This document shows positions 22,136-49,628 of a DNA stretch of 60,000 nucleotides, piece by piece. A model generated the notes under the pieces. That model saw only the letters and a list, made by a program, of their open reading frames with translations. It ran no database searches and was not told where the DNA came from. Source of the DNA: Mobula hypostoma (Eukaryota); NCBI RefSeq assembly GCF_963921235.1, contig NC_086097.1, forward strand, positions 149,546,001-149,606,000. Reading direction: 5' to 3'. A program made the position numbers and the translations under genes. The stretch's first letter is position 1. The number at the start of each line of letters is the position of its first letter.

Positions 22136-22147
22136 GAAATTGATAGG

Positions 22148-22211
22148 CAACAAGTCCTGAGATTTTCCAGATTATTCACCAAGAAAATCTGGAAAATCTC
22201 AGGACTTGTTG
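22148..22211. repeat. Perfect 26-bp inverted repeat (64-nt hairpin)
   Basis: caacaagtcctgagattttccagatt (22148-22173), 12-nt spacer, aatctggaaaatctcaggacttgttg (22186-22211). Confidence 0.95.
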
Positions 22212-24662: not shown

Positions 24663-25455
24663 CAGCGGATTCCGGTTAATTAGGACACATTGGGACTAGA
24701 ACATTTTAGCCCAACTAAGCTGCTGCCCCAATTAGTCAAAATTTCGTGGAAAAAGATATAAAGGTATAAAAAATGCAAACTACCATTTAAACTGAGTAAC
24801 AAATTATGTACTTGAATGAAATACAGTACAAATTAGAATACTACCAATACTACTGGGTATTAGTTCCTAATAGATCCCGAAGGAGGAATTCATCCAGTGT
24901 CTGCTGCTGTGTTCTTTTGAGTAACTGTAAATGAACAAAATCACTGCCTTCATGCAATGTTTTCAGCAATTGCATCCTCCAAATCTTCATTTGCATTGTA
25001 ACATTCAAGATGATTGTCAATACCCTCAAATTCTTCATTGCTCCTATCTTGCTGAACTGATGAAATCATTTCATTTTCACTCCCGGCCATTTCTGGCATC
25101 TCCAAGCCTGAATACTTGAAACCCCAGTGAGCAAAAGTGTTCAGAATTGTCTTAATGCTTATTTCTTGCTAACTATCAATGAAAAAGGTATCTGATTTTT
25201 AAACAAAAATGCTCGCTATTGACGTTATTTTAAAAACTGTTCACTCTAAGCATGATGTAGTGTCCAACATCCGCACAAGTGCAATCTTATTTAGAAACTG
25301 TTTGGCAAGTTTCCAGTCCCAATTAAACTGCATACTGTCCCAAATAAACGAAGTGAATCCTGACTATTTTTCTGATTAGTTTTTGCTCTTTAAGAGTTGT
25401 CCCAAATAAGCTGCTGCCCTGATAAACCGATGGCCCAATTCACCGGAACCCACTG
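24663..25455 (-). mobile_element. pogo/Tigger-like DNA transposon, internally deleted
   Basis: TA|cagcggattccggttaatt ... aattcaccggaacccactg|TA TIRs. Minus-strand transposase C-terminal remnants DS*QEISIKTILNTFAHWGFK and QQTLDEFL. Confidence 0.75.
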
Positions 25456-26613
25456 TATTTTCATTTTGTCCTTTACTGAAGACAGATTGAATTTAAGGAA
25501 GTAGAAATTACAGTGCAAATCTCAACACAGATTAATTTTCTATGAATGGTTCAAAAATATATGAAAACTCCAACATGTTGACATTATTCCTAATTCTAAA
25601 CTTAATTTTATACTTTATTTGAACCAAAGTAAATTTAAGAAATTCTAATCTGTGTTTTGTAATTTGGGGATGTTGTATTCATTACAAAGTTTAATAGCTG
25701 CCAAACAACAAAGAAAGCTTGTCTGATTTTTACTCTAATTTTGGTGATATATTTTACATCCCTAATTGCACTCTGCTGGTGGCAAACACAGGAATTCCAT
25801 CCTTTGGTATCATTTAATGTTCATCTTGACTGATCTGACAGGAGCATCTGGTAGCATTTTGCATTAACTCTGAAACAGAGATACTCTGATGCATTTATTG
25901 GCTACTCCATCTGTTCTTAACAGCTCTTACATCACCACTTTGAAATGGGCAAAGTTTACTATTTATAGATCTGGAAAACTTCAATATCTCCAATTGTGCT
26001 TCCATTGATACAATAACCGAGATCCAAAATTTGGTCAAAGGAATGAACCACTTTTAATAGAACTCTGAATCAAGCCATGGTATTAGAATGCATTTTTGAC
26101 TCAGCTGCTAACTGCTAAATGTGCTACAAGTTCGGCAATATGTCCTCCACTTGGAAAATTATTTTTTTTTTCTGATTTATGGTGAAAAAGAACTGCTGAA
26201 GGAATCTTGCACAATGGAACCATTCCACATAGATCAGGAAAGATGGAGATTGAACTGTATATCGAACTTCAGCTAAGTGAGAATTTGAGTGATGGGTAAA
26301 GAGATATAAGAGTAAAATCAGCCAGAGTTCCAATTATTTGTCTATTGCTCTGTAGAAAATACATCCAAGAGGAATTTAGTTGAGAATCCAAAATAGTAGT
26401 AATTAAGCTTCCACAACTATAGAAGTGTTATCTGTTAGCACTCACTGTTGAATCCATGCAAGCCGAATAATTGCATGGGTGAGGTATTGCATATAGCATC
26501 TGCAAAACAGCTGGTGACTTCATGGTGGGGGGGGGGAATAAAATCAGAGTTGTAAAGATCAGTCTCTTGGGTTATGAACAATGCACTAATTTGCCTCTTT
26601 TTTTTATTTGCAG

Positions 26614-26679
26614 TAAGTCAATGGAATCCTGTGCTCAACATGTGTCCAGAAGTTAGCCTTCCACCACTTCCTCAAAAAG
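26614..26679 (+). CDS. TG: Thyroglobulin exon (exon 35 equivalent)
   Basis: ttgcag|...|gtacac, 66 bp, phase 1-1. Encodes VSQWNPVLNMCPEVSLPPLPQK, similar to human ...FCPLVVLPSLTEK. Confidence 0.88.
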
Positions 26680-28279
26680 GTACACTCAAAAAATGTTTAT
26701 ACTTGCCAACTTTCCTTGCTCAATTATACAATTGGCATAAAGATTTGAAGGATAAAGAAGATTAAAGTTGGAGAGAAAGAAATGTTATACATGATGCACA
26801 ATCTGGTCTAATCCCTTTATTTAGACAACGTGGTTCATGGTGTAACTGCACAATTTCTTTTTCTGGGTGATGCTCTGCTCACTGTGGGATGACAATGTAT
26901 ACTGAACTTCCGGTCCCTGTTAGCTAATCCCATTACAAGCTCCCATAATTTAAGGGTGAACAATAAGTATTTATATGGGAGCCTGCACTCCAAATTAGGC
27001 AGACAGAAACATTACAATAAATATGATTTAACACTTCAGGTGGGAGACCTTAATCAAGGTGTTCATTTTCCATTTATGGTTGATGCCGATGACCAACCAC
27101 ACTGGTTAAGCAACTTCTCAGCACCCAGATGTAAGTTTCACTTTGAATTGCAGAACATTCCAACTTTAAAGGATGCTGTTGTTTGTCATTATCATTAAGC
27201 CAAAATTCTGGAATTCTATTCCCAGCAACATTGTGAGAGAATTTTTACAATAAATTTCACAAGCTTTCTAAACACGAGCGCAATGAATGCAGCAAAGAAG
27301 TTATGCTATAATTGTTTGAATTATACTTAGCAAGCTGAAACATTTGTTTTATGAAAGGAAGAGCATGAAGGAAATGAATCATTTTCTGAAAGAAAGTCAG
27401 AAGCCTCCCAGTTATACTCTATAGCCTTTGCCAGCCTTCATTTTGGTTAAGGCTCCCCCTTTCTTAGGGAAACCACATAAAACAATAGTTCCTACCCACT
27501 GTAACAATGTGATATACCACAGACAATGCGTACATTATTTACCTTGACAAAAGAAAACCACCACTTCCTGGTAAAGGTTCCACCATAATTCAAAGAGGTA
27601 CATAACAAAACCACAAGAATGAAGTCTAGCAATTGTTGCTCTAATTTGATTGGTCACCATTAATTTCTTTTGTCCATTTGGGTTGTAAAATAGTTCTCTA
27701 ATCTTAAATACTGTATATGAGCTAAGATCCCAAAGTCAATTGGCTAAATGTAATTTTTCTGGTCTGATATTTACAATATTGAATAATGGATAAAGGAGAA
27801 GAACTTAATTTCAATTCCTCAGAACTTCCAAAGCAGTTTAGAACTAATAAAATATCTTCTAAGGTGCATTTATTGGAATGTCTCCAATTTGCAGATGGCA
27901 AGGGGATAATTATGTGCTTCAGTGATGTGAACTAAGGGATGATTATTCTCCAGCAGCACAGCAGAATCATTTCAGTTTTCAGAGACTACCATTTTGGTTA
28001 TTTAAGACCACGTGAGATGGTGGTAAAAAACCTTAATTTAACTTCCAAAAGGAAAAGTGAGAACTTTGGCAGAGCAGCAATGCATATTGCCTTGGTATTT
28101 ATTATGTGTCTGTCTCTGAAATTAATAATTGCTTGGACTCTTAACTTTTGGTTCAGAAGTAAAAGTGTTACAAGTGAGCCCCAGCTATCTCCTAATACAA
28201 GCCATGTAATCTGAAACTGGTGGCTCACTCCCACTGCAGTCTCCAGCAAAATGGTACTGATGACCATCTGGTAGTGTCT

Positions 28280-28915
28280 AATTGATAGTGATGAAAATTG
28301 GAAAAGGTGAAACAATAGGTTAGCTTCCTCTATGGGTTACTACCGTTCATTTCTTTGGGCAGTGAATACAAGATCAGGGAGGTTTTACTCTGACTTTATG
28401 AAACGTTAGTCAGACTTCAGCTGGAGTACTGTGTACAGTTCCGATCACCACAGTATAGGAAGTGTTATATCACTGGAGAAGGTACAGAGGAGATTTACCA
28501 GGATCTTACCTGGGATTGAGCATTTCAGTTATGTGGAAAGCATAGAGGGGCTAGGTCATTTTCCCTGGAGTGAAGGTTAATTGAGTAATATAAAATTATG
28601 AAGAGTACAGATGGGATAGACTGTGGAAACTTCTTTGTACCAGAGGTAGATAGAAGTAGAGGAAGGGGTGAGGGATTTAGAGGGGATCAAGGGGGGACCT
28701 GTTCCACCCAGAAGTGTTAAGTGCCCTGATACACTGACTGAAAGAATGATGGAAGCAGAATCGATGACAGCATCTATGAAGTGTTTAGATGAGCACTTGA
28801 ATCACTTAGGCTTAGAAGATTACAGGCCAAGTTCTGGGTGAGGGATTAATACAAATAAATGCCCACTGGTCAGCAAAGGTGTGGGAAGAATGGCTTGTTT
28901 CCATCTTCTATGACT
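28280..28915 (+). mobile_element. Old CR1 LINE 3' fragment
   Basis: ctggagtactgtgtacagtt (LEYCVQF) and gtacagaggagatttaccaggat (VQRRFTR) motifs. Confidence 0.7.
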
Positions 28916-29419
28916 CTCTCATAATCTCTCAAATCATCAGTCTGTAGCATTACAACTATGTAATAAAGCTCTTAGTGGAAAATCAATGTCACTGGCGGAT
29001 GACTACAGCCATATCTTACTGTTGTCAATTGTATGCCATTATTTTAGGAAATGTTAACGATTTCCGATGGTTTCAGCTTCCTGGCATGGGATGCACTGTA
29101 GGTTTTACCATCTTATCCTGAACTATTGCTGAAGCCCCACAGAGGAACTATTGAAGCATACAATCCTAGCCTTTCCTGCATCAACAAATTTGGCCTTCAG
29201 GTTGCCAGAGGTAACAATTGCCATCAGACAGCTTTCTGGTCTGTGTGGTTTACCAGCTGAGATTAGAAAGACTTGTATTTCAATAGCAATCTTCCCATCC
29301 CTTTCTGGAGGTCACAAGGTGCAGTCAGTGAAGCTACCTTGAAGTCTAATTGCAATGAAGGAAATAAGCCAATGTAAGTGTATCGAGCTCCCATAAGCAG
29401 CAATGCAATAATGACTAAG

Positions 29420-29660
29420 TAATGTAATGTTGATCGAGGGATCAATATGGGTGAGGGGATGGACTGCAATTTGACTCCTCTGAAATGTTTTCAAATGATT
29501 TTTATATCTGCCTGAGAGACCAGATGGAGCTTGAGTTTAACATTTTAACCAAAAGTCGGAGCTTCTAGCAACACAGCATTCTCGCTAGAGTTCCAGTCTA
29601 GGTCTTTATGCTCAGTTTTCCAGAGCATAACACGTACCCACAGCCATCAGACACAGAAAC
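29420..29660 (-). mobile_element. Degenerate Deu-domain SINE (SacSINE/AmnSINE-like)
   Basis: Resembles the recalled Deu core (cctgagag..cagatggag..gtttaacat..). Similar relics lie near 15040-15220 and 9780-10110. Confidence 0.4.
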
Positions 29661-29939
29661 AATTTTGATTACTACTGACATAATTAGAAATGTTAATTTC
29701 ATTGTGTACAGTATATGCAAGTTATGGGTATTTTAGCCTGGAAGATATATTTCTTTTAAAAACTTCTCTTTTTATTCATCTCCCTTTCTTCTTTTCCCCT
29801 GCTCTCTATCTTTCATTTCACCTTTTTGTCACAACATTCTTGGAATTGGAATATGGGTACCCTGTCTTATCCAGAAAATTGCTAAGGGTCGACGGTGATG
29901 TGCCAAATTTCTTTAGCCTCCTGAGGAAGTACAGTAGAG

Positions 29940-31129
29940 CAGTGGTCCCCAACCACCGGGCTGCGGACCGGTACCGGGCCGCAAGGAAACGATATGATTT
30001 GGCGATACGAGTCAGCTGCCCCTTTCCTCATTCCCTGTCACGCACTGTTGAGCTTGAACGTACGCGAGGTTATTACACATGAGCCACCCATGTCAGCGCG
30101 GGAAGGAGATCAACTCCTCGAGCTTGCAAATGACGGTGGGCTGAAAAGTATGTTTGACATAACATCTCTGCCGGCATTCTGGATCAAAGGCAAGGCTAAA
30201 TATCCTGAGATAGCCACGAAAGCACTGAAAATGTTGGTTCCATTTCCAACATATCTCCGCAATGAATGCAACGAAAACTAAATTGTGGAATAGACTGGAC
30301 ATAAGGAACCCCCTTCGAGTATCGCTGTCTCCCATCACCCCTCGATGGCACCGTCTTGTAGCAGGAAAACAAGTATTCAGCCCAGGGCTCCCACTAATTC
30401 AGCGATATTGGTGTGTTGCAATGATTTTGTATGTTCATACGAGGAAAATATGCGGTGTGTGTTTAATATCCAAACATTACTTAAAATGTTATGATGCTAT
30501 TGACTTTTATAACCATATAACAATTACAGCACGGAAACAGGCCATCTCTGCCCTTCTAGTCCATGCTGAACGCTACTCTCACCTCGTTCCACCAACCTGC
30601 ACTCAGCCCATAACCCTCCTTTCCTTTCCTGTCCATATAGCTGTCCACTTTAACTTTAAGTGATAATATGGAACCTGCCTCTACCACTTCTACTGAAGTT
30701 CGTTCAACACTTCAAGCTCCCCTGTCCTCCCCTGATAATTGGCTTATTGGTATATCCATGCAAGGAAAATATGCGCTGTGTGTTTAATATAAAATTCGTT
30801 AGATAATCCCTTTTAGAAACGAAATTGAGTGTATTAGCCACTTATCACCTATGTTCCAGTCATGATTAACACTTCCCCCAAACAGAATTGTCAAAAACAA
30901 TTTTTTAAAAATCGGCACGTACACACACGTGCAAATTACGCACGCGCACTGGTGCTAGCGCAAGGCTTCATGGTCATTGTAGACTTTCTCGGGGTAAACA
31001 CAATGTATTTGACTGCTACTCTTGTATGTTGGTAACCCTAACCCATCCCCCCCGCCCCGGTCGGCTGGTCCGCAAGAATATTGTCAATATGAAACCGGTC
31101 CGCAGTGCAAAAAAGGTTGGGGACCCCTG
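29940..31129 (+). mobile_element. hAT Charlie3/MER1-like element, internally deleted
   Basis: TIRs cagtggtccccaacc / ggttggggacccctg and perfect 8-bp TSD cagtagag (29932-29939, 31130-31137). Transposase C-terminus LLELANDGGLKSMF...FWIKGKAKYPEIATKALK...TKTKLWNRLD...LRVSLSPITPRWHRLVAGKQ. Confidence 0.92.
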
Positions 31130-31317
31130 CAGTAGAGGTACTGCATTTCAGAACTTAAGAGTTAATGAGGACAAGGGAACACACACTCAATACTACTCTC
31201 ACTTGGATCACTTAAGGCATTATGAGTTAAGTGACTATATGTTTCCACTTCATGATGTTGATGTTTGCTGTTGTTATCATTATTGCTATTATTATTATGA
31301 CTATATTTTGTTTGCAG

Positions 31318-31461
31318 TTTCACTGAATCATTGGCAAATGCTGAAGGTGCCTCCAGTCCTTGACTCGGCAATGACCTCCTTTGATATTTTACACATCAGC
31401 AGCTATACCCCTGTAGTGACTGAAAACTTCATGAACAATGCCAGAGACTGGTGCCTGTCAG
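31318..31461 (+). CDS. TG: Thyroglobulin exon (exon 36 equivalent)
   Basis: ttgcag|...|gtaaac, 144 bp. Encodes VSLNHWQMLKVPPVLDSAMTSFDILHISSYTPVVTENFMNNARDWCLS, similar to human VSLDSWQ...FDVAHVS...RDLCLS. Confidence 0.93.
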
Positions 31462-33410
31462 GTAAACACACCATGCTACTGAAATACAGAGCATTCAAAA
31501 CATTTACAGTACAATATATTACTGAATTCCCTAAACTGATTTAGTGAGTCGAACTTTGTAACCCTAAATGCATGTAGACTGCCAGCAAGGCTGTCTTAAA
31601 CGTGTCCACAGATTTCTATCAAATGTTAGCTCACTTATGGAAGAACTCTTAGCAGGTAACAGTCCCCAACAATGCAGACGCAAGAAACTGTGTGAGGCCA
31701 CACTGTAAGACAGATGAGAAGGGTGCAGAAGGGTACCAGCGTGTTGCCTGATTTAGACAAATTAGAGTTATAGGAAGAAATTGGAATGACTAGGCTTATT
31801 TCCTGAGGAAAAAGACTGAGGAGTGACCTGAAGAATTGGAAGTGGAATTGGTTTATTATTGAAACATGTTCCGAGGTACAGTGAAAAGCTTGTCTTGTCT
31901 ACTGTTCATATAGATCAATGTCCAGGCTGAGAGGGATGACGTCAGCTGCTTTAGTGAGGCAGTGAGAAGTTCAGACAGAATCCCTGGAAGGGACATTGTT
32001 TTCTGTGATGTTCTGAGCTGTGGCCACAACTGTCTCCAGAAATATACAAGGGTAGGAGAAGCACAGATCGAACAGATATCTCAAGGTTGAAATATCAAAA
32101 ATAAGAGGGCATAGGCTAAAGATGAGAAGGTGAAGTTTTGCCAGGGATCTGAAGGATTAGTTGTTTTGCACAGATAGTGATTGAACTTTGCAAAATGCTT
32201 CCAGAGGAGATGTTTGAGTCATATAAAATATTATGCTCAAGAGCTATTCAAACAGATTCTTAAATAGGCATGGCATGGAAGCATAGAGAGGCAAAACGAT
32301 AGGCCAAATATTGCATTTCTGTGCTTTATGAATCTATTACCCTAAACTGCCTTTGACAGCAAGCCATGATTAGCGCCCAGGGTAGCAGAAAGGAGGCTTG
32401 GAAAGATTGAAGTCAATGGGCATCATGGAAACATATTCCAATTGTTGGAAATGTATCTCAAATCAAGGAAGATGGTTGTACAGTAGATATTGAGGAATAA
32501 TTATCTTAACCCTAGAATATCACTGCTACTGTCCCTCATAGCAGTGTCCTAGGCTGAACCATCATTGACCTTCCCAAATTGTATCTGAGCTCATGCTATA
32601 CAATTTCATGTGGATCTCCTCAGCCAATAAAGCAGTCTGGGCCCTATTATATTGAGTCTTAGGCAACGTATAGACTCAGACAACATCTACAAGCACACAA
32701 ATGTGGAGTTAGGTGGAATGTCCTCACATGTCTGGATGGGTTCCATATATCTCCAATAACTCTCTGGTGGATTGATACTTTCTAGGGCAAAGCAGCTCAG
32801 CTGAGTAGTGTCCACTCTATCATTTCATTCTATTAAATTCCAGAATGCATATTCTCACTCTACGTACTTTCAAAGAATAATTCTTTCACGAGGGATCAAT
32901 TAGTGATTTATGTTGCACACCTCTAAGGTAGTTATCTCCTTCCTTAGATATGAAGATGAAAATTTCTCCAACTACACTGACTCTCATTTGACCAAAGTCT
33001 TACGTAACTGCAGCAGGATATCATAACAATGACTACTACCCCATTTGTCTCCAAAATTACTTGACCTTGTACCACAAAGGGAGCAGTTCGGTACTATTGC
33101 TATGGGCATGCTATCGCAGCCTTCAGTATTGAGTAAGCTCAAAGCCTCGGGTGTTACTGAATCAATGTTGCATTATTTACTCTATGTATTGCCAGAGATT
33201 GCTGCTTTATGCTGAGGGAGCATCAGGCCTTGACTGCAGAGTCAGAACAATTAGGCATTAAGATGTTTAGTTTCATGGTTCAAGCTAACTGAGGGAAATG
33301 CGGTTTGAAACAGGTAGGTGGATTGGATTTTGATTCAAAGGAAAGAAGAGAAGCAATGGGACAGAAATGAGCCCAAAGAACTATAAGCAAGGAATATTCA
33401 CTCCCATTAC

Positions 33411-34470
33411 ATTAAGTGCCCATGGTATTACAGGAAAGTTACTGGCATAGTTGGAGCTTTGGTTTATTGGTAGGAATAGTGAGTGGGAATAAGAGGATCC
33501 TTTTCTCGTTGTCTGCCAGTGACTAGTGGTGTTCCACAGGGGTCGGTGTTGGGACTGCTTTTTTTCATGCTGTATATAAATGATTTAGATGATGGAATAG
33601 ATGGCTTTGTTGCCAAGTTTGCTGATGATACAAAGATCTGTGGAGGGGCAGGTTGTGTTGAAGAAACAGGTAGGATGCAGAAGGACTTAGACAGATTAGG
33701 AGAATGGGTAAGAGAATGGCAAGTGAAATACAATTTTGGAAAATGTATGGTCATACACTTTGGTAGAAGAAATAAGTGTGTAGACTATTTTCTAAACAGG
33801 GAGAAAATCAAAAAATCTGAGATGCAAAGGAACTTGGGAGTCCTTGTGCAGAACACCAGAAAAGTTAACTTGCAGGTAGAGTTGGTAATGAGGAAGGCAA
33901 ATGCAATGTTAGCAATAATTTCAAGAGGTCTTGAGGACAAGAACAGGGATGTGATGCTGAGGCTTTATAGGCACTGGTGAGGCCTCGCGTTGAGTATTGT
34001 GAATAGTTCTGGGCTCCTCATCTAAGGTAAGATGTGCTGGCATTGGAGAGGGGTCAGAGGTGGTTCACAAGGATGATTTTGGGAATGAAAGGGTTATCAT
34101 ATGAGGAACGTTTGATGGCTCTGGGTCTGTACTCACTGGAATTTAGAAGGATGGGGGGTGGGTGTTTCACTGAAACCTTTTAAATGTTGAAAGGCCTAGA
34201 CAGAGTAGATGCCTCAGGATGGTGGGGCATCCATTTAAAGAGAAATTTCTTTAGCCAGAGGGTGGTGAATTTGTGGAATTTGTTACCACAGGTAGCTGTG
34301 GAGGGCAGATTGTTAGGTGTACATAGCAGAGATTGATAGATTCTTGATTGGACATGACATCAAAGGTTCTGGGGAGAAGGCCGGGGAGTGGGGCTGAGGA
34401 GGGGGAAACATGGATCAGCCATGATTGAATGGCGAAGCAGATGGCCTAATTCTGCTCCTGTGTTTATGGT
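33411..34470 (+). mobile_element. CR1 LINE 3' fragment
   Basis: ORF 33483-33980 with SGVPQGSVLG and KFADDTK RT motifs. Confidence 0.9.
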
Positions 34471-34765
34471 GTTCCTGAAATGGTGTGACTTGACCTTGGA
34501 AATAGTTAAATTATTCTGATGTTATTCTGGTCCAGAGAGAATGATATTTTTTTGCCTACCATTGTTATCTACTAATTATTTAGGCTACTTTGATTCTTAT
34601 ATTACTAACCAAAATGAGTAATTTCAGTTTTCATGCAAGTGCAGATGATTTGCCACTCTTGTTGATTTGCTCAGTGATGCTCTAGCAGGTGTAGAAGCCC
34701 CAATTACTATTTCCATGAAGGGGGCATATTAATTGGGCACCTGTTTATGCTTCTTTCTCATACAG

Positions 34766-34930
34766 CTTGTGCCTCCAATCGCACTTGTGCCTCAGTTTCT
34801 CTTCATCGTCAGTCATCAGGGATCAGATGTATCTTTTATCCTGACACACACAGCTGTCAACTCAGATTACAAGGCCATCACTGTCGAACACTGCTTAAGG
34901 AGGCTGCAGATGTGGTCTATCACAGGAAAT
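34766..34930 (+). CDS. TG: Thyroglobulin exon (exon 37 equivalent, last type-3 repeat)
   Basis: atacag|...|gtgagt, 165 bp, phase 1-1. Encodes ACASNRTCASVSLHRQSSGIRCIFYPDTHSCQLRLQGHHCRTLLKEAADVVYHRK. Confidence 0.96.
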
Positions 34931-35439
34931 GTGAGTATGAGCAAAGTTCTTGAGGTTTGGTGCTGTGTAATTATTTTATATATTTCCCCAACCCAAGATG
35001 CATATATCTTCCTTCCAGGCATGTGCATACTCATACTGTGTACAATGTCATTGATGTAAACAACTAACTGGAACATGCAAATTGATCACTTATCAAAAAT
35101 AAGCTCAGACTGCATGTTTTGACACCCAGGCAGTCTTTAATAGCAAGTGATTAGTTCTTGGTTAAAAATAGTTGTGTTTTTTTTCATAGTATACTGATGC
35201 TGAAGATAACTGTTGCGCTCTTATCATGATTGTTTTCTGCAAATAACTAATGCAACCTTAGGTTAAGGTTTGGCAGTCTCTCCTGATCTGAATGGCACGC
35301 TAGCAATGTGCAGAGTAATTACAGTGGTGAGGAATCAGCGTTGGTAACAAAACGTGAGAAGGGGAGCTGCCAATCAGAAATGAGAACTGCTTGTCTGACT
35401 ACACTTTCTCCCACTATATTGTAAGGATTCTTCCATTTC

Positions 35440-36330
35440 TCCAGTTCTATCCAGATCTTGTTCTGATTTCACTGGTGCTTATGAAATGTCTCCTTTTTCC
35501 CTTAACTCTGGCTTCCTTCTACCAAAGCTTATGGATCTCTCAGCCAGATCTGGCCCATTTCTTGAACTTCTGCTCTCAGTTGCTCTCCATTGCTCTCCTT
35601 CCTCTCCCTGCAAGGATTGGGTTCCCCTTGTCCTCAACATCGACCCTAACAGCATTCACATTCAAGATATAATCTTCTGGAATTTCTGCCGCTTTTGATC
35701 ACATGCAATCACCAGCCTCGACTTCCCTCTCTGTTGAGGGTTGGGCAAGGAGAGTTGCACTCCTCTGCAACTCCCTTGTTCACTCTTTCATGTCCACTGG
35801 TACACACTCCCCTTGCACCATTACATGTACCTGCAGGTAATATATCACTTGCCCTTTTACCATTTCCCTTCCTATGATCCAAGCAGTCTTTCCAAGTAAG
35901 ATGACAACTTACCTGAATTTCTTCCAATGTGGTGTACTGGATTCAGGTTTCACTGCGTGATCTCTTCTACATGGGAGAAAGTAAGCACAGGTTGGGTGAC
36001 TTCTTTACAGAAGACTCCCAAATAGACCATAAGGTTAATCCTGAGCTTCCAGCTGTTTGTACCTTTATATCTCCATTCCTCTCCCACTCTGATGTCCCGA
36101 TCTTTGGCCTTCTGCAGTAAGTGCAATATAAATTCAAGGACTAGAAGTGTATCTTCTTTAAAGAGACATTCTGGGCCTCAGGCCACAATGTTGAATTCCA
36201 CAATTTCAGAATTTGCTTTTATAACTGCCCAGGAACTGGGCAGTTCTGATGTAAGGTTGTCAACTGTAATGTTTTCTGTCCACAGTAATTACTGTCCAGC
36301 TGGGCATTTTCAACATTTTCTTTCGTTTCA
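35440..36330 (+). mobile_element. Penelope-like relic
   Basis: VYWIQVSLRDLFYMGESKHRLGD (GIY-YIG remnant), homologous to 1-733. Confidence 0.6.
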
Positions 36331-36855
36331 AATTTCCAGCAGCGTCTGTGTTCGGAATCCCACAGTTCCAGCAGTTTGTTTATTTTGTCTCCTGATGTCC
36401 TCATTCATTTCACTTCTGCTCCTCCATACAGAGCACTATGATTAACGTTCATCACCCTCCCTTAGATGGGACCAACAGTACTTGTGCCCCCAAGATTCCC
36501 TTTCACTTCACCTTAGCACAGACATACCCTTTCTTTTCTCTTGCCCTTAAAATTTGTTTTCTCAAATTTCCAATTCTGAGGAAAGGTCATTGGCCGAAGC
36601 CAAAGACTTACTTTCCCTCTTCGCGGCAGATGCTGCCTGATTTGCTGAATATCTCAGGAATTTTCAGTTCCTATTTCAGCTTTGAATCAGCTGTAGTAGT
36701 TTGCTTTTAGACAACTTGTCTGGTTATTTTAGTGAAAGGCAACCCCACTAAAAACCATAGAACGCTGAGCTGTGATAAAATATAAGCACAATAGGTGGCC
36801 ACATGTTCAGTGCCACTTTTTGAGCAAGTTAAATATTGTTTGGTTTTTTTCCCAG

Positions 36856-36972
36856 CTTTAGGAGGGTCATGTGCAGGTCGCTGTGGGAACTATCAACCTG
36901 ACGAGGCCTGTCAGTGTAACTTAAAGTGTGAGGATTATGCAGATTGCTGTCCTGACATTCATGCCTGTACTG
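36856..36972 (+). CDS. TG: Extra exon encoding a somatomedin-B (SMB) domain, predicted to splice into thyroglobulin
   Basis: ttttttttcccag-type acceptor and |gtgagt donor, 117 bp, phase 1-1, matching both neighbours. Encodes SLGGSCAGRCGNYQPDEACQCNLKCEDYADCCPDIHACT with the 8-Cys SMB pattern SCxGRC-x8-CxC-x3-C-x5-CCxD-x3-C. Confidence 0.85.
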
Positions 36973-37188
36973 GTGAGTGAATAAACAAATTCCATGAGAA
37001 TTCCGGCAAGCTATTGCTAACCATTAATGAGAACCCATACAGGAATTACCTGTATGGTAATACAGGTATGGTATGAGCATTCCTCTCTCAAATATTCTGT
37101 GAAAGTTATGCTCTTACTGCTAGTCAGTTCTATTTCCTATCACACATTTTCACCTGTACTGACAGATGATTATTTCTTGTCAATTCAG

Positions 37189-37408
37189 ATCCTTTGTTAT
37201 TAGAAACCCAGCCGCAGCTGACCTCTATATTAATTCCTGGTCATGGAATTCTGTTTGGGGAATCTCAAGATACCCGTGTTGGTGTGGAATGGAAGGCTGT
37301 AAATCGTTTCCTGGGAGTTCCATATGCAGCTCCGCCCACTGGCGAAGGCCGATTTAAGGCCCCAGCATCCTTTAACTGGACAGGACAATGGAATGCAACT
37401 TTCTACAG
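37189..37408 (+). CDS. TG: Thyroglobulin exon (exon 38 equivalent, start of ChEL domain)
   Basis: attcag|...|gtgagc, 220 bp, phase 1-2. Encodes ...GHGILFGESQDTRVGVEWKAVNRFLGVPYAAPPTGEGRFKAPASFNWTGQWNATFY. Confidence 0.97.
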
Positions 37409-37789
37409 GTGAGCAAAGCCTTACCTGTTGGTTATTTCATTTGTGGATTGAACATTACTTTATCAACAATACAGCTGGCAGCAATATATTGCTTGAACTT
37501 TGTCTAGTTCTGACGATTAATCTTCTAAAGGGTAATATTGCCCTTGAGAGGCAGTTAGCTGAATATGAGGAATAGATACAAAATGCTGAGCTTCTCTGGA
37601 AAATTATAAATTTGAAATGTTGAAGTTTGGGAAAAAAATGAGCCAGACAACTCGTTGAACAGTTAAATATTAAATGAAGGAAAGAGAAAAGGTCAATTTG
37701 TTATATGCAAAGAGTAATGTGATAAATTACCAGAGAAGTCTATCAAAATGTATCAATACTGGGTTCAGACATTTGTCTGCAAAAAAAAA

Positions 37790-38894
37790 AAAAAACAATT
37801 TTCTGGAGTAACTCAATCATTCAGGCAGATCTATGGAGGGAAATAGACATTCAATGTTTCAGGTCAAGACCTTTCAACATAAAAAGGTGAAGGGAAGAGG
37901 TGGAGAAGAACTACAAAGCAATAGGTGGTCCTGTGAGGAATGGTGGTAGGTAGATGGAGAAGAAAGAGTGGAAATAGTGACAAAAACTGTAAAGTTATAT
38001 GTGGAAATGACAAAGGGCTGAAAATAACAGTATCTGATAGGAGAGCAAGATGGAACATGGAACGAAGGGGAAGACAGACAGGTACATTGAAGGAGGAGAA
38101 CCGGCGGGATTAGTGTTTTGATGTTTGGCAGTGCAGTGAGTGCAGGATGGGAAAGAGACATACTGGTGGGACCAGAGTGGGTGTCAGGATATTGATTTGA
38201 TCATGACAACTGAAAAGAGGGTTAGAGAAGGTTTACTGAAAGCTGAATTTCTTGTTCCTGCCGTCGCACCGTAGATTACCTAGGCAGAATATGAACTGTC
38301 ATTCCTCCCACTTTACCCTGGCAGTGGAGGAACTTGAGAATAGACAGGCTGGTGTGGGAACAGGGAGAAGAATTAAATTGCTAGCAACATGGAACTCCAT
38401 ATGGCCATGCAGTTGAAGCGCAGATGTTCAGCAAAGTAGTCAGCCAGTTTGTGCTGGGTCTCATCAAAATAGAGGAGGCCATGTCAGGAGTACTGGATGG
38501 AATAACCAAGCCAATTGATTTGCATGCCATTCCTTGCTTTACTTGGAAAGGCTGTTTAGGGCTCTGGATACTAGTGAGGGAGGAGATATAGGGACAGTTT
38601 TACACTCCTACAGTTATAGGGTAAGATGTCTAGGGATGGGGAGCGATGGCTGGGATGGGATGAGGGCTGACAAAGTAGAAGGGGCTGGGAAGGGAAGATT
38701 TAGCTGGTGGAGGGATCACATTGGAACTGATGGAATGCGTAGTCTGGTGGCGTGATAGGCAAGGACCAGGGCATTTCTATCCCTATTCTGTCTTGGGAGA
38801 TGGAGTAAGAGCAGAAGTGCAGGGGAGTAGAGAAGATACAGTTGAGGACTCTATCAGTAACAACAGGCGAGAGGGAGGGCCTGCTTTTTGAAAA
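37790..38894 (-). mobile_element. Penelope-like relic (resumes at about 43070-43480 beyond the inserted CR1)
   Basis: Reverse-complement similarity to 1-733 and 35440-36330; terminal-repeat motifs at both outer ends. Confidence 0.55.
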
Positions 38895-41800
38895 TTCTTC
38901 AGCAGTTTGAACGCAGCACAACTGCGCAAGCGGTGTGGAGGTTGGCCAGTGAGAACAACGGCAAGAGTTTAAAAGGAAGACAGATTTACAGAGTGGGTGC
39001 TGGAGGAGCGGGCATTGGAGTAGTGGGAGACAGAGTAGGAAGACTTTGGCTCAACGGGGCTTCGGCGATAAATATTGTGGCCTAGTAGGTTATATGTTTA
39101 AAATAAAGACAGAGTATGTGTGTGAGGCTGGTTTTCTGTGCTCGGTGTCAGATGTGGGAAGTACTGGAGTCTCCCAGCCTCCTGGATGACCACATCTGCA
39201 CCTGGTGTGTCGAGCTGCAGCTCCTTAGAGACCACATTAGGGAACTGGAACTGGTGCTGCAGCTCGATGACCTTCGTCTGGTCAGGGAGAGTGAGGAGGT
39301 GATAGAGAGGAGCTATAAGCAGATAGTCACCCCGGGACCACAGGAGACAGAAAAATGGGTAATAGTCAGGAGAGGAATGGGCAAGAAGCAGGTACTAGAG
39401 AGTACCTGGGTGCTGTCCCCCTTAACAATAAGTATTCCTGCTTGAGTACTGTTGGGGGGGGGATGGCCTACCTGGGGGAAGTAACAGTGGTCATGCCTCT
39501 GGCACAGAGTCTGGCCCTGTGGCTCAGATGGGTAGGGAAAGGAAGAGGATGAGGATGGCAGCCGTGATAGGGGACTCTATAGTTAGGGGGTCAGAAAGGC
39601 AATTCTGTGGATGCAGGAAAGAAACACAGAATCGTTTGCCTCCCTGGTGCCAGGGTCCGGGATGTTTCTGATCGCGTCCACAATATCTTGAAGTGGGAAG
39701 GAGAACAGCCAGAGGTCGTGGTACATATTGGTACTAATTACACAGGTAGGAAAAGGGAGGAGATCCTGAAAAAAGACTACATGGAGTTAGGAAAGAAGTT
39801 GAGAAGCAGGACCTTAAAGGGAATAATCTTGGGACTACTGACTATGCCATGTGACATTGAGTATAGGAATAGAATGAGGTGGAAGATAGATGCGTGACTG
39901 AGGGATTGGAGCGGGAGGCAGGGATTCAGATTTCTGGATCATTGGGACCTCTTCTGGGGCAGGTGTGACCTGTACAAAAAGGATGGGTTGCACTTGAATC
40001 TGAGGGGGGACCAATATCCTGGCAGGAAGGTTTGCTAAGCCTATTGGGGAGAGCTTGAACTAGAATTGCTGGGCGGGGGGGGGGGGGTGTGGGAACCGAA
40101 CTAAAGTGACGGAGGAAAGGGAGGTTAGCTCACAAATAGAGAGTTTGGAGACAGTGCGAAAGGGAGGATAGGCAGGTGATAGAGAAGGGATGCACTCAGT
40201 CTGATGATTTGAGATGTGTCTATTTTAATGCAAGGAGCATTATGAATAAAGTGGATGAGTTTAGAGCATGGATCAGCAGTTGGAGCTATGATGTTGTGGC
40301 CATTACCGAGACTTGGACGGTGCAGGGGCAGGAATGGCTACTTCAAGTGCCAGGCATTAGATGTTTCAGAAAAGACAGGGAGGGAGGCAAAAGAGGAGGG
40401 GGCGTGGCACTGTTGTTCAGAGAAAGTGTCATGGCTGTAGAAAAGCAGGAAGAAGTCATGGAGGGGTTGTCTACGGAGTCTCTGCAGGTGGAAGTCAGGA
40501 ATAGGAAGGGGTCAATAACTCTACTGGGTGTTTTTTATAGACCACCCAATAGTAATAGGGACATCAAGGAGCAGATAGGGAGACAGATTCTGGAAAGGAG
40601 TAATAATAACAGGGTTGTTGTGGTGGGAGATTTTAATTACCCAAATATTGATTGGCATCTACCTAGAGTGAGGGGTTTAGATGGGGTGGAGTTTGTTAGG
40701 TGTCTTCAGGAAGGTTTATTGACACAATATGTAGATAAGCCTACAAGAGGAGAGACTACCTGATCTGGTATTGGGAAATGAACCTGGGTCAGGTGTCCGG
40801 TCTCTCAGTGGGAGAGCATTTTGGAGATGGTGATCACAATTCTATCTCCTTTACCATAGCATTGGAGAGAGATAGGAACAGACAAGTTAGGGAAACGTTT
40901 AATTTTAGTAAAGGGAACTATGAGGCTATCAGGCAGGAACTTGGAAGCATAAATTGGAAGCTGATGTTCCTAGGGAAACAGCGAAGAAATGTGGCAAATG
41001 TTCAGGGGATATTTGCATGGGGTTCTGAGAAGGTACGTTTCAATGAGACAGGGAAAGGACGGTAGGGTACAAGATCCATGGTGCACAAAGACTGTTGTAA
41101 ATCTAGTCAAGAAGAAAAGAGCTTACATAGGTAATGATAGGAATCTAGAAGATTATAAGGCAAGCAGGAAGGAGCTTGAGAATGAAATTAGGAGAACCAG
41201 AAGGGGCCATGAGAAGGCCTTGGTGAACAGGATTAAGGAAAACCCCAAGACATTCTACAAATGTGTGAAAAGCAAGAGGATAAGATTTGAGAGAATAGGA
41301 CCAATCGAGTGTGACAGTGGAAAAGTGTGTATGGAACAGGAGGAAATAGTGGAGGTACTTAATGAATACTTGGCTTCAGTATTCACTATGGGAAAAGGAT
41401 CTTGGTGATTGTAGGGATGACTTGCAGTGGACTGAAAAGCTTGAGAATGTAGATATTAAGAAAGAGGATGTATTGGAGCTTATGGAAAGCATCAAGTTGG
41501 ATAAGTCACTGGGACCAGACAGGGTGTACCCGAGGCTACTGTGGGAAGCGAGGGAGGAGATTGTGGAGCCTCTGGCAATGATCTTTGCATCATCAATGAG
41601 GACAGGAGAGGTTCCAGAAGATTGGAGATGTTGCTCCCTTATTCAAGAAAGGAAGAAGAGATAACCCAGGAAATTATAGTCCAGTGAGTCTTACTTCAGT
41701 GGTTGGTAAGTTGATGGAGAAGATCCTGAGAGGCAGGATTTATGAACATTTGGAGAGGCATAATATGATTAGGAATAGTCAGCATGGCTTTGTCAAAGGC

Positions 41801-43070
41801 AGGTTGTGCCTTACGAGCCTGATTGAATTTTTTGAGAATGTGAGAATTTTGAGAATAGCACATTGATGAAGGTAGAGCCGTAGATGTAGTGCATATGGAT
41901 TTTAGCAAGGCATTTGATAAGGTACCCCATGCAAGGCTTCTTGAGAAAGTAAGGAGGCATGGGATCCAAGGGGGCATTGCTTTATATATCCAGAACTGGC
42001 TTGCCCACAAAAGGCAGAGTGTTTGTAGATGGGTCATATTCTGCATAGAGGACGGTGACCAGTGGTGTGCCTCAGGGATCTGTTCTGGGACCCCTACTCT
42101 TGTGATTTTTATAAATGACCTGGATGAGAAATTGGAGGGATGGGTTAATAAATTTGCTGATGACACAAAGCTTGGGTGTGGTTTGGTAGTGTGGAGGGCT
42201 GTCAGAGGTTACAACGGGACATTGATAAGATGCAAAACTGGGCTGAGAAATGGCAGATGGAGTTCAACCCAGGTAAGTGTGAGGTGGTTCATTTTGGTAG
42301 GTCAAATATGATGGCAGAAAATAGTATTAATGGCAAGATTCTTGGCAGTTTGGAAGATCAGAGGGATCTTGGGGTCAGAGTCCATAGGACACTCAAAGCT
42401 GCTGTGTAGGTTTACTCTGTGGTTAAGAAGGCATACAGTGCATTAGCCTTAATCAATCGTGGGATTGACTTTAAGAGCCGAGAGGTAAAGTTGCAGCTAT
42501 ATACAACCCAGGTCAGACCTCACTTGGAGTACTGTGCTCCATTCTGGTCCCCTCATTATAGGAAGGATGTGGAAACTAGTGAAGGGGTACAGAGGAGATT
42601 TACAAGGATGTTGCCCGGATTGGGGAGCATGCCTTATGAGAATAGGTTGAGTGAACTTGACCTTTTCTCCTTGGAGCAATGGAGGATTAGAGGTGACTTG
42701 ATAGAGGTGTGCAAGATAATGAGAGGCATTGATCAAGTGGATAGTCAGAGGCTTTTCCCCAGGGCTGAATTGGCTAGCACAAGAGGGCTTGGAATTTAAG
42801 GTGCTTGGAAGCAGGTACAGAGGAGATGTCAGGGGTAAGTTTTTTTTTTATGCACAGAGTGGTAAGTGTGTGGAATGGGCTGCCAGTGGCGGTGGTGAAG
42901 GAGAAAACGATCGATTCTTTTTGAAGACTCCTGGATGGCTACATGGGACTTAGAAAAATAGAGGGCTATGGGTGAAGCCTAGGTAGTTCTAAGGTAGGGA
43001 CATGTTCGGCACAGCTTTGTGGGCCGAAGGGCCTGTATTGTGCTGTATGTTTTCTATGTTTCTATGTTTC
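38895..43070 (+). mobile_element. Near full-length CR1 LINE (ORF1 zinc finger/SGNH esterase plus ORF2 APE-RT), decayed
   Basis: ORF1: CARCQMWE..HICTWC, VIGDSIVRG, LPGARVRDV..VVVHIGTN. ORF2: FNARSIMNK..ITETW..VGDFN, DFSKAFDKVPH, KFADDTK. 3' tail (ttctatgt)n. Multiple frameshifts. Confidence 0.93.
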
Positions 43071-43685
43071 ATCTCAAGAACAAATGCAGTGGGAATGGAG
43101 GAACTGATAAAATAGGATGTTATCCTTAAATGTGATTGAGTAAGAGGAGGTGAAATCTAGGTAGTGTGGGAGTCAATGGGTTTTGTAGTAGATGTTGGTG
43201 AATAGTATGGCTCTTGACATGGAGCCAGAAAGATCAAGAAAGTGGAAAAAGATATTTGAACTAGCCTTATTTTTTGCCAGTTTGTGCATATGACCCTTTT
43301 CCTTCAACTTTCATATGCTGGCTATTTCCTCTCTATCTTTCAGTCCAGATGAAGTGTCTCAACCGAAAATGTTGACTGTCCATTTCCCTCCACAGATGCT
43401 TCCTGACCCATTTAGTTCTTCTATCTCTTGTGTTATTTTGTTTTTGCTTCAGATTCCAGCACCTGTAGTTTCATGTGTCTCCGTTAGACATTTGTCTGGC
43501 TACTTACTAGACAATAGGTATATTCAACACAATGTGAAAAAAAATAAGCCAAGGCAAATGGAAAATCAGGCAATTGTACAACAGGAAGCCAATTAAACAT
43601 TTATTATTTTTACACTGATCTAAAGTTAAAATTAGCTCCAAAACATTTCTAATAAGAGACTATATTCATTCCTCTTTTGTTTCAG

Positions 43686-43779
43686 GCCCAGTTGCCTGCA
43701 GCCAGGGAATGCAAAAGCAGTTTACTCCACTGTGGATGAAGACTGCCTCTATCTGAACATTTTTGTACCAAAAAGCACT
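43686..43779 (+). CDS. TG: Thyroglobulin exon (exon 39 equivalent)
   Basis: tttcag|...|gtaagt, 94 bp, phase 2-0. Encodes RPSCLQPGNAKAVYSTVDEDCLYLNIFVPKST (EDCLYLN carboxylesterase-family signature). Confidence 0.97.
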
Positions 43780-45321
43780 GTAAGTATTGATAATCTGGCT
43801 ATACAAAGGGGTTGCTGTGTCATTTCATGGTAGGTTTGTGCACAAAATTATAAATTTCAGTTGTTTCAGCAAGTGTAAGACCATGCACTAAAACAAATTC
43901 TTCTTTCCTGGGTAGGTAGATACTAGTTGGTAAAGAGTTTTAGCTTGCTCGATAGTTAGTATAGATGTTGAAAAACAGACCATTTATTTTTATTCTCAGA
44001 AGCAGAGAAACACATTTTTTTTCCGTGAACTGTGGTCATAGCTGACAAAGCCAAAATTTACTACCCTTTCCCATTTGTCCTCAAAAGATGGTGGAGGATT
44101 ACCTTCTTGAACTATTGGTTCTTTGGAATTGGTAATATACCAAATGACTTGCCAGGCTGCTGGAGATGAAGTTAAAATCAGTTAGTTAGGAGTCATTTGA
44201 ATGAGGATAGAACAATGCTGGCTTGAACTGATATTTTTCAGCAGTGTCAGCAGAGAATGGTGAGGAGCAGAAAACAGACAATTCCACAAAAGGAAAAGGA
44301 AAATTAAGCTATAAAGCAATTACTCAATTTTTCAATTCCTCAAAGCATTCCTGAAAAAAAAACTTTGAAATTTTCTAATTTTCTGGCAAAATGCATCATG
44401 TATCTACTCCGGTCTTTGCATGAAGACTGAAGTGATAGTGAAGTTCTGTGTGAAGAAATTCTTTGTGAATTGAAGATGTTCACCAGGGAATAGATGGCAT
44501 TATAGCAAAAAAAAAATTGTAAATTGAATGTTGATAAACTAAAGAATTCTGTAAGCCATTGTTTACCCATCAGCATACACTGGAAGCTGCAAGAACATAA
44601 ATTATGACATAGTGGATGTAAATCAGGGAGACCTTTTCGTCTTTTACGTTCAACAGATGATATAATCTCTAGTGGTCAGAAATGGAATTCAACTGATTTT
44701 TTCACTTTCCAATATAAAGTCACAACCTAGGTTTACAGGTATATCAAATCTCTTTATCAATCTATGCCCATCTTTCCTAAAACTCCATGGTTTTCCGCTT
44801 CCTGCCATAGTTAGGAAATGGCCTTAAGCAAAATGGCTATTTTTCTTGTAAGTTTTTAACCAGAGTTGTCAAATATCAGTTCTATTCCATCCTCTTCCTA
44901 TTTCTCTGTTGAACATTTGAGTCTTTTTGGAACTAATCTGGCCTTTCAAAAGATCAATGCAATGGTTAAAACAGTTTATCAAAAATGACTGAAAGTAGCG
45001 ACCCAGCCATAGAGATGAATTGATTCGGAGGCCACTGTAAGGGACTTAAGAACAACACTGTTTCCTTTGGCTGTACTTATGGAAATTCATGTATGGTTGG
45101 ATGACAATTAAACCTAAACTTGAACTTGCAGTAGAGGTTTTGGGTCAAAAGCTCTTATGGAAGCTGCATCACGGAAGACCCTAAACACCCACCAGGACAC
45201 CCAGCAAGTTGAATTTTCATTTGTCTTCGTATATAACCCCAGTGTCCTTGATAATATAGGTGAAGAGCAGGTCAGCCCCATTAGTTGAATCAATATGAAC
45301 ATCTCATAGACTCAGCAGTTT

Positions 45322-48040
45322 CATAAGAACTTAAGAAATAGGAGCAGGAGTAGGCCATCCGGCCCATCAAGCCTGCCCCACCGTTCAATAAGATCATGGC
45401 TGATCTGTCTGTAAACTCAGCTTCATCTAGCTGACTTTTCCCCATAACCCTTAATTTCCTTGCTATATAAAAATCTATCTAACTGTATCTTAAATATATT
45501 TAGTGAAGCAGCCTCAACTGCTTCCCTGGGCAGAGAATTCCACAGATTCACCACTCTCTGGGGGAAAAACCAGTTTCTCCTCATCTCCGTCCTAAATCTT
45601 CTCCCCTGAATCTTGAGGCATTGTCCCCTAGTTGTAGTCTCACCTACCAATGGAAACAGCTTTTCTAATTCTATTTTATCTATCCCTTTCAAAATTTTGT
45701 ATGTTTCTATAAGATCCCCTCTCATTCTTCTGAATTCCAGAGAGTAGTGTCCCAGGCGACTCAATCGTTCCTCATAGGTTAACCCCTTCATCCCTGGAAT
45801 CAACCTGGTGAACCTCCTCTGCACTGCCTCCAAAGCCAGTATATCCTTCTTCAAGTATGGAGGCCAGAACTACACACAGTACTCCAGGTGTGGCCTCACC
45901 AGTACCCTGTATAGTTGCAGCATGACCTCCCTGCTCTTGAATTTAATCCCTGCAGCAACGAAGGCCAATGTTCCGTTTGCCTTAATAACCTGTTGTAGCT
46001 GCAAGCCAACATTTTGCGATTCATGAACAAGTGCTCCCAAGTCCCTCTGCACAACAGCATGCTGCAATTTTTCACCATTTAAATAATAATCTGCTTTTTT
46101 ATTATTCCTTCCAAAGTGGATGATCTTGCATTTACCAACGTTGTATTCTATCTGCCAGACCTTGGCCCACTCACTTAACCTATCCACAAACGTATATCCG
46201 TCTGCAGACTCTTCACATCCTCTGCACAATTTGCTTTTCCACTCAGTTTAGTGTCATCAGCAAATTTTGCTACGCTACACTCAGTCCCCTCTTCCAAATC
46301 ATCAATGTACATGGTAAACAGCTGTGGGCCCACAACCGACCCCTGCGGCACCCCACTCACCACAGATTGCCAACCGGAGAAACACCCATTTATACTAACT
46401 CTCTGCATTCTGTTGTAAGTTTCCAATCCACTATCTATGCCAATACACTTCCTCCAACTCCATGCATCCGTATCTTATTTATAAGTCTATTGTGTGGCAC
46501 CTTATCGAATGCCCTCTGGAAATCCAAGTATATGATATCCACCTGTTCCCTTCTATCCACAGCACTCATTATGTCCTCAAAGAACTCCAGTAAGTTTGTG
46601 AAATAGGACCTGCCCTTTCCGAATCCATGCTGTGTCTGTCTAATGGAACCACTCCTTTCTAAATGTTTTGCTATTTCTTCCTTAATGACAGCTTCAAGCA
46701 TTTTCCCGACTACAGATGTTAAACTAACCGGTCTATTGTTGCCCATCTTTCGCCTACATCCGTTTTTTAAAAAAATGGCATGACTTTTGCTGTCTTCCAA
46801 TCCACCGGGACCTGCCCAGAGTCTAGTGAGTTTTGGTAAATGATTACCAATGCGTCTACTGTAACCTCCGCCAATTCCCTCAGTACCCTGGGATGCATCC
46901 CATCAGGACCATGGGACTTATCTACCTTCAGGTCCTGTAGTTTGCTCATCACTATCTCTTTAGTGACAGTGATTTTATCTCTGTCCTCACCTCCCATTTT
47001 GTCTATAACATCATTCTTTGGCATATTAGACGTGTCCTCCACCGTGAAGACCGACACAAAATAGTCATTCAATGCCTCAGCCATTTCCTTATCACCCAAT
47101 ATCAACTTCCCCTTATTGTCTTCCAAGGGCCCTATGTTGACTTTAGCCACCCTCTTCCGCTTTATATATTTATAAAAGCTTTTGCTATCTGTTTTTATAT
47201 TTTGTGCTAATTTACTTTCATACTCTATCTTCCCTTTCCTTACTTCTTGTTTAGTTGTTCTTTGTTGCTTTTTAAAGTTTTCCCGATCCTCCAGTCTCCC
47301 ACTACTCTTTGTGACTTTGTACACATGAACTTTTAATCTGATACTATCTTTTATTTCCTTAGCTATCCAAGGTTGGTTCTCCCCACACTTACTGTCCTTA
47401 CTTTTGACTGGAATATACTTTTGTTGAGCACTGTGAAAAATCTCTTTGAAAGTATTCCACTGTTCCTCAACTGTCCTACCAAATAGCCTGTCCTCCCAAT
47501 CCACATTAGCCAACTCCACCCTCATCCCATTGTAGTCTCCCTTGTTCAAGAATAATCACTAGTTTTAGATTTAACTGTTTCATCCACCATCTGTATGCAA
47601 AATTCAATCATAGTTTGATCACTCTTTCCATGAGGATCCCTGACTACAAGATCGTTAATCTTGCCTGTCTCATTGTACAGGACTAGATCTAAGATAACAT
47701 TTTCCCTTGTAGGTTCACTAACATGCTGCTCAAGAAAACCATCACAGATGCATTCTATGAAGTCCTCCTCAAGACTTCCTTGACCAACCTGATTCACCCA
47801 CTCTATGTGGAAATTAAAATCCCCCATGACAACTGCTGTTCTGTTCTTGCAAGCCTCTGTTATTTCTTGGTTAATCGCCTCTGCCACTGCAATATTTTTT
47901 ATTATGTGGCCTATAGACAACTTGCACCAGTGATTTTTTTTCCCCTCTACTATTCCTAATCTCTACCCAAATGACTCAACATTCTGCTCTGTAAATCTTA
48001 TATCATCTCTCACAATCGCCCTGATCTCATCCTTAATCAA
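45322..48040 (-). mobile_element. CR1 LINE ORF2 relic, 5'-truncated
   Basis: Minus-strand ORFs 47546-47920, 46767-47549, 46435-46800 (YLDFQRAFDKVPH), 46175-46426 (GVPQGSV, KFADDTK) and 45423-45854. Confidence 0.92.
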
Positions 48041-48345
48041 GTTTCATCTGGTTAACTCCTGTGTTTTCTTCGGGCCTCTCTCTTCTCCTGTGGCAACATG
48101 CACCCCTGTATAGATACAACGTGTCCACAGGAGAGGAATGCGTTTTGTATGGGATAAATCTCTTGTGATAATTTGTCAGCTGTTTGTTGACCAAAGGATC
48201 TTTAAACTTCCAGCCCTCATGTTCACACCCAATTATTTGAGTAGGTGGCTAAATCACTCTGATCCTCAGGAAAGGTTGTCCGCATGTTGCTGAAGACCCA
48301 GCAACACTTGTCAACGTCATAACCCTGATATTGTTTGTGTGACAG

Positions 48346-48505
48346 GTGGGGAACATCCCGGTCTTGATCTTCTTCCACAACAGTGCAGCAGATTACGAAG
48401 ATGGGAGACAAAGCAACATCGATGGATCCTACCTTGCATCGGCTGGAAACATTGTCATTGTGACAGCAAACTACAGGGTTGGAGTCTTTGGATTCTTAAG
48501 TGATG
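48346..48505 (+). CDS. TG: Thyroglobulin exon (exon 40 equivalent)
   Basis: gacag|...|gtaagc, 160 bp, phase 0-1. Encodes VGNIPVLIFFHNSAADYEDGRQSNIDGSYLASAGNIVIVTANYRVGVFGFLSD (TG-type FFHN in place of HGGG). Confidence 0.97.
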
Positions 48506-49431: not shown

Positions 49432-49628
49432 GTAGTGATGCAATCGCTGGTAATTGGGGCCTTTTGGATCAGATGGCTGCATTGCAGTGGCTGCGGTGGA
49501 ACATTGGTTACTTTGGTGGATCTCCATCAAGTGTCACGATTGCTGGGGACCGGAGTAATGCTGATATCACCAGCATGAACCTTATTGCAGTGACTGGCAG
49601 CAAACTTTTCCAACGAGCTTTGCTTCTG
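49432..49628 (+). CDS. TG: Thyroglobulin exon (exon 41 equivalent)
   Basis: atgcag|...|gtaaga, 197 bp, phase 1-0. Encodes GSDAIAGNWGLLDQMAALQWLRWNIGYFGGSPSSVTIAGDRSNADITSMNLIAVTGSKLFQRALLL; the catalytic GESAG is replaced by GDRSN. Confidence 0.96.

Follow-up and report, generated by a model that had tools for sequence, protein, structure and literature searches.

The thyroglobulin (TG) gene of the ray Mobula hypostoma carries a real, spliced and in-frame exon encoding a somatomedin-B (SMB) module, an addition that lies between the final type-3 repeat and the ChEL domain, as the initial annotation of the window (the whole stretch of 60,000 nucleotides that was analysed) had proposed. In our best reading the ray uses this coding exon constitutively, in a TG gene that is ordinary in all other respects. 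The explanation that best accounts for the data overall, in which we place strong confidence, is a constitutive SMB exon in spacer 3 that is ancestral and has been lost multiple times. Such an ancestral SMB-bearing TG architecture with parallel losses is apparently undescribed so far.

Results

TG exons in the window were located by tblastn with Mobula birostris TG as the query (identity per exon 85-100%), and exon numbers 37 and 38 follow the exon map in a preprint (bioRxiv 10.1101/2025.06.18.660348).

1630..49628, + strand: part of the TG gene, 14 exon matches from the type-3 repeats into ChEL (tblastn, ends approximate)
34766..34930, + strand: TG exon-37 equivalent, 165 bp, 3' part of repeat 3a3, phase 1 at its end
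34931..36855, + strand: intron 5' of the SMB exon, 1925 bp, GT..AG, joint in 4/4 runs
36856..36972, + strand: SMB exon of TG, 117 bp, phase 1-1, eight Cys with spacing 3-8-1-3-5-0-5
36973..37188, + strand: intron 3' of the SMB exon, 216 bp, GT..AG, joint in 4/4 runs
37189..37408, + strand: TG exon-38 equivalent, 220 bp, remaining spacer 3 and start of ChEL (COesterase 42.5 bits)

The gene is orthologous to TG and shows type-3 repeats followed by ChEL; type-1 repeats are found in full-length TG proteins of relatives. Its closest proteins are Mobula TGs (94-96% identity across matched exons), and the nearest solved relatives of exon 37189-37408 are bovine and human thyroglobulin. The SMB exon is bounded by AG (5') and GT (3'), and exons 34766-34930, 36856-36972 and 37189-37408 form an open frame with or without it. 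Coordinates, length, splice-site ends, phase and the eight cysteines all agree with the first description of the exon.

Reverse-transcriptase-like LINE fragments with open frames lie in TG introns on the + strand, at about 33520-33884 and 40809-42296. Downstream of the last matched TG exon, an SH2-domain exon (53899-54231, Pfam 34.8 bits) and a probable C-terminal exon (51962-52219) are found antisense, on the minus strand. These antisense exons look like SLA (Src-like adaptor), a gene that sits inside a large intron of human TG; if they are SLA, the nesting of SLA in TG would be common to human and rays.

Splicing was read from assembled contigs of four of the seven listed runs, which come from two studies and two organism labels and are presumed, though not recorded, to be RNA. 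Joints 34930>36856 and 36972>37189, both GT..AG, were present in contigs of 4/4 runs; all three exons were on a single contig in three runs, and in the fourth two overlapping contigs held one joint each. The skip joint 34930>37189 was absent from the joints listed for the contigs of these four runs, assemblies that lack rare variants and in which a minor skipped form could be missed. These contigs, from runs without a tissue label, are evidence that the exon is included and not evidence against skipping. That the SMB exon belongs to another or a nested gene was ruled out, as single contigs place it between both TG exons and a search of the ray's own genome with it returned seven candidates, of which one reached E<=0.001. 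Run X5 (the second organism label) shows C>A at window position 36902, an Asp-to-Glu change in SMB, and Mobula birostris TG has the same state.

The exon scored 30.6 bits against Pfam Somatomedin_B (PF01033; E 4.3e-7, cut-off 23.1), so the HMMER check suggested earlier bears out the domain assignment. The copies of sea lamprey (25.9 bits), lungfish (24.0) and P0238, a 666-residue TG fragment (24.3), likewise lie above the cut-off. Whole TG proteins of four sharks and rays reach 20.7-22.0 bits, under the cut-off, which explains why the SMB label is missing on shark and ray TG. No SMB entry was present in the precomputed annotations of the retrieved TG proteins, and a Pfam scan of human, sturgeon and Lampetra TG found no SMB. 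All 28 TG copies follow the pattern C-x3-C...C-x-C-x3-C-x5-CC...C with eight Cys, and the spacing 3-8-1-3-5-0-5 was seen in 28/28 of them versus 0/236 other SMBs, the latter chosen for likeness to the TG copies. The best matches of the module in a PDB sequence search were ENDOU, vitronectin and ENPP2; an ESM Atlas search gave no usable match.

Modelled alone, on an alignment that consisted of SMB domains and is therefore biased towards the SMB fold, the module reached a pLDDT of 88 and superimposed on vitronectin SMB (1OC0_B) with an rmsd of 1.2 A over 36 residues (Z 5.4). In a structure search with this model, each of the five matches at Z>=2 was an SMB domain, and Foldseek gave a TM of 0.78, though no E below 0.001. 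The SMB fold of the TG module is at this stage a prediction only. In a 998-residue model the flanks were confident (TM-score 0.70-0.71 to solved TG) and the SMB had a pLDDT under 50, for which reason no docking site of the module on ChEL or 3a3 is predicted.

Homologue searches, cluster look-ups and a profile search yielded 382 proteins, both flanks being covered in 242, in a set without hagfish, gar, bowfin, Polypterus or salamander TG. Scored on gene models rather than genomes, the module was present in 28/242 and absent from 214, with unlabelled representatives placed by best match alone. The carriers comprise 24 shark, skate and ray proteins (22 species), lungfish, P0238 and two sea-lamprey versions. 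The module lies at the same TG site in every shark and ray species (22/22) and in each of the 24 models of theirs that cover this site; two shark and ray fragments without it do not extend that far. African lungfish TG (XP_043922872.1) carries it at the same site, and the sea-lamprey RefSeq protein (XP_032817730.1/.2) carries it as well. The module was not found in any tetrapod or ray-finned gene model examined; named proteins without it come from caecilian, frogs, reptiles, birds and mammals, and from reedfish, sturgeons, paddlefish and teleosts. A chimaera TG fragment is also without it, and so are six models from lampreys: one of Petromyzon (Ensembl), four of Lampetra, among them 3/3 in RefSeq, and one of Lethenteron. 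With the module, the linker between repeat and ChEL measures 47 residues (46 in skates). The SMB-free linker has 8 residues in caecilian and most mammals, exactly 39 fewer, 9 in reptiles and bird, and mostly 3 in frogs and ray-fins. TG of the little skate, Leucoraja erinacea, is annotated in two pieces of 1289 and 362 residues (P0001 and P0003), probably a split model.

Lamprey TG models conflict over the SMB exon (P0207 and P0212 versus P0119, P0120, P0121 and P0208-P0210), both across genera and across Petromyzon annotations, and a reconstruction from the Ensembl model consequently misses the exon. The sea-lamprey SMB amounts to exactly 39 residues extra over the Lampetra models, and it aligns without gaps to the window exon (21/38 identical). 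In a quick-search tree built for 32 TGs after excision of the SMB, from which the caecilian and tuatara rows were dropped because the anchor motif was missing, lungfish and P0238 fell among bony vertebrates (SH-aLRT 88) and outside sharks and rays (96). P0238 was placed outside tetrapods, ray-fins and lungfish, a position that makes it probably coelacanth TG. A mislabelled or contaminating shark gene as the source of the lungfish model was rejected, since the tree puts lungfish with bony vertebrates.

Between Mobula and lungfish, identity is 71% in the SMB versus 44-59% in the other tested segments (63% versus 40-58% with Cys excluded). The corresponding values for Mobula and lamprey are 56% versus 20-44%, and with Cys excluded 44%, a tie with ChEL at 43%. 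When SMBs were ranked against the lamprey copy, the first non-TG SMB appeared at rank 16 of 277, inside the TG score range, and likeness alone is accordingly no proof of a single origin. The other SMB matches in the Mobula genome mostly have phase-1 splice candidates, and the spacing 3-8-1-3-5-0-5 occurs in 0/15 of them. One SMB-like match (G000:C91:39349901-39350011, L010) has a stop right after its last Cys and phase-2 splice candidates, unlike the rest. No donor gene for the module was found, the nearest non-TG SMBs being scattered and mostly nameless proteins.

Discussion

The case for a single origin of the module is built on site, length and Cys spacing combined, and on these grounds we regard one ancient gain, followed by retention and repeated frame-neutral loss, as highly probable. 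A single gain of the SMB by TG, in the form of a phase 1-1 exon, would predate the split between lampreys and jawed vertebrates, and the module would have been retained in sharks, rays, lungfish, sea lamprey and probably coelacanth. Frame-neutral deletion of the exon would then have occurred at least twice, in ray-finned fishes and in tetrapods, with perhaps two further losses, in Lampetra/Lethenteron and in chimaera. The accepted vertebrate phylogeny was used for this reconstruction, and under it one gain with two firm and two possible losses is the simplest history. Repeated loss is easily envisaged because deletion of a symmetric exon keeps the frame. The layout of human TG looks like a trimmed form of the ancestral protein.

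Several other accounts of the module have to be weighed against this one. A gain by exon shuffling within rays or cartilaginous fishes, one of two origins considered in the initial annotation, is suggested by the presence of the module in 22/22 shark and ray species and its absence in every tetrapod and ray-fin model that was examined, and the phase-1 candidates on most of the genome's remaining SMB matches would make the module ready for shuffling. However, lungfish, P0238 (another TG of a bony vertebrate) and sea lamprey have the same module, with identical site, length and private Cys spacing, and the rows of these TGs are not nested within sharks and rays. A lineage-specific gain would require at least three independent insertions of one variant into one intron, and we find it scarcely credible. 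The other origin considered, an ancestral module lost in bony vertebrates, was right as to ancestry and too broad as to loss, since lobe-finned fishes retain the exon and ray-fins and tetrapods would have lost it separately. We give practically no credence to the reading of the insert as a degenerate sixth type-3 (3b-like) repeat derived by internal duplication, the view taken of the lamprey insert in the preprint cited above. The eight cysteines and the place beside the type-3 array speak for it (bioRxiv 10.1101/2025.06.18.660348), but five inserts scored only -4.3 to 2.3 bits on four type-3 segment profiles, against 40.8-46.9 bits for the same inserts on a profile of non-TG SMBs, and this contradicts a type-3b identity. 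The predicted fold, moreover, is that of an SMB, unlike the helix and three-stranded sheet described for type-3 repeats (PMC8748809, accessible text). Weak Pfam matches to PAN and MANEC in lamprey TG (P0212, P0209) and precomputed PAN labels on teleost TG (P0065, P0073) suggest that the type-3 repeats themselves may be PAN/apple-like.

It could also be argued that the exon is an ancient alternative cassette, with SMB-containing and SMB-free TG made together, and that skipping or annotation gaps, not deletion, account for what look like losses in Lampetra, Lethenteron, chimaera and perhaps elsewhere. The idea of two isoforms had been raised from the symmetry of the 117-bp exon. Skipping would indeed stay in frame, Petromyzon models exist both with and without the module, and the SMB-free protein is functional in tetrapods and ray-fins. 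Against it, only inclusion joints were seen in the 4/4 ray runs and none of the 24 site-spanning shark and ray models omits the module; the 3/3 RefSeq Lampetra models without it are compatible with loss and skipping alike. What holds of the isoform proposal is that skipping is possible in frame and that lamprey models differ, and for rays the runs gave no sign of it. We therefore treat an ancient cassette as possible but doubtful.

With regard to function, the exon adds a small SMB cysteine knot, predicted to fold by itself, to spacer 3, the linker that joins repeat 3a3 to ChEL. Human TG functions without SMB, and the module is thus dispensable for hormone synthesis as such. Human Tyr2194 lies six residues beyond the SMB insertion point, and it carries MIT/DIT in native human TG (PMC8748809, accessible text), from which it follows that the linker is accessible. 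Vitronectin Asp22, between Phe13 and Tyr28, holds an arginine of uPAR or PAI-1 (PMC8417595, accessible text), and the SMBs of ENPP1 and ENPP3 assist trafficking and, in part, dimerisation (PMC8808174, accessible text). By analogy with such domains, we lean slightly towards the SMB of TG being a non-covalent, surface-exposed binding module in TG-TG packing or receptor-mediated traffic. This role is favoured because the module has no spare thiol, because it combines Asn22 with retained aromatics, and because of what ENPP1 and ENPP3 SMBs do; binding would use the two conserved aromatics and not the Arg-Asp22 pocket of vitronectin.

The alternatives to a non-covalent binding role appear less probable, to differing degrees. 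A role next to ChEL in helping TG to fold or be secreted is unlikely. That the module supplies extra iodinated tyrosines seems more doubtful still (in the lamprey SMB, Phe occupies one of these two Tyr positions), and a near-neutral relic is improbable. We have very little confidence in covalent cross-linking of TG in colloid or in vitronectin-like binding of PAI-1 or uPAR. These ideas draw on the richness of the module in Cys, on the partial contribution of ENPP3 SMBs to homodimers (PMC8808174, accessible text), and on the pocket aromatics, position Phe13 being Tyr in 28/28 copies and position Tyr28 being Tyr or Phe in 28/28. The eight cysteines, however, form an even and invariant set that leaves no free thiol, which makes covalent cross-linking unlikely and leaves the covalent form of the colloid cross-linking suggested initially unsupported. 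As for PAI-1 and uPAR, the module has no RGD motif, and the Asp22 position is Asn in 28/28 TG copies, so that the vitronectin-type arrangement of Asp22 between Phe13 and Tyr28 is absent even though the aromatics are retained; Asn at this position is also frequent in other SMBs (125/245).

Compared with known systems, the ray gene follows the type-3 to ChEL order of vertebrate TG (human 6SCJ/7B75, bovine 7N4Y/7QTQ) and its flanking exons match, and it differs in 39 more residues and eight more Cys, i.e. the SMB in spacer 3. The module shares the eight-Cys pattern and the predicted fold of the vitronectin, ENPP1-3 and ENDOU SMBs (PF01033), but it is one internal copy, not N-terminal or tandem. 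Relative to vitronectin it is one residue shorter in the second and in the last Cys interval and has Asn in place of Asp22.

Previous reports state that TG architecture is conserved across vertebrates (PMC8748809, abstract) and that lamprey TG has the same domain composition (PMC13078365, accessible text). The preprint bioRxiv 10.1101/2025.06.18.660348, which covers 38 species, none of them a lungfish, shark or ray, and draws the conclusion that every domain is strictly conserved, describes in its main text a 39-residue, eight-Cys lamprey insert in spacer 3, likens it to type-3b modules and treats it as a feature of a second transcript. These are the same residues at the same site as in XP_032817730.1, identified here as an SMB and traced across vertebrates. 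Somatomedin or SMB is mentioned neither in that main text nor in the accessible text of PMC13078365 and PMC12992692; the accessible text of PMC10578121 and PMC12936070 holds nothing on the module, and a term search of PMC2120994 for it gave no match. Within the open literature (subscription journals being outside its scope) our search found no paper naming SMB in TG, and nothing on the TG structure of shark or lungfish. The novelty that had been claimed for the module should thus be qualified: RefSeq models already hold the residues unlabelled and the preprint noticed the lamprey insert as type-3b-like, while the SMB identity is apparently undescribed.

A broader scenario can be offered tentatively. 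The SMB may have been a sixth module type in the first vertebrate TG, placed where region III meets ChEL, that bound a specific partner (receptor, matrix or TG itself) in ancestral colloid storage or uptake and was dropped separately by ray-fins and tetrapods; in lampreys, splicing might turn it on or off, possibly between the endostyle of larvae and the follicles of adults, and the exon may mark the intron where ChEL joined the repeats.

In conclusion, the presented data change nothing directly for human thyroid medicine, but they correct reconstructions of TG origin and provide a clean example of repeated symmetric-exon loss. The ancestral TG would have had one domain more, which several deep lineages keep under strong constraint and which disappeared in parallel from the two groups to which nearly all model species belong.
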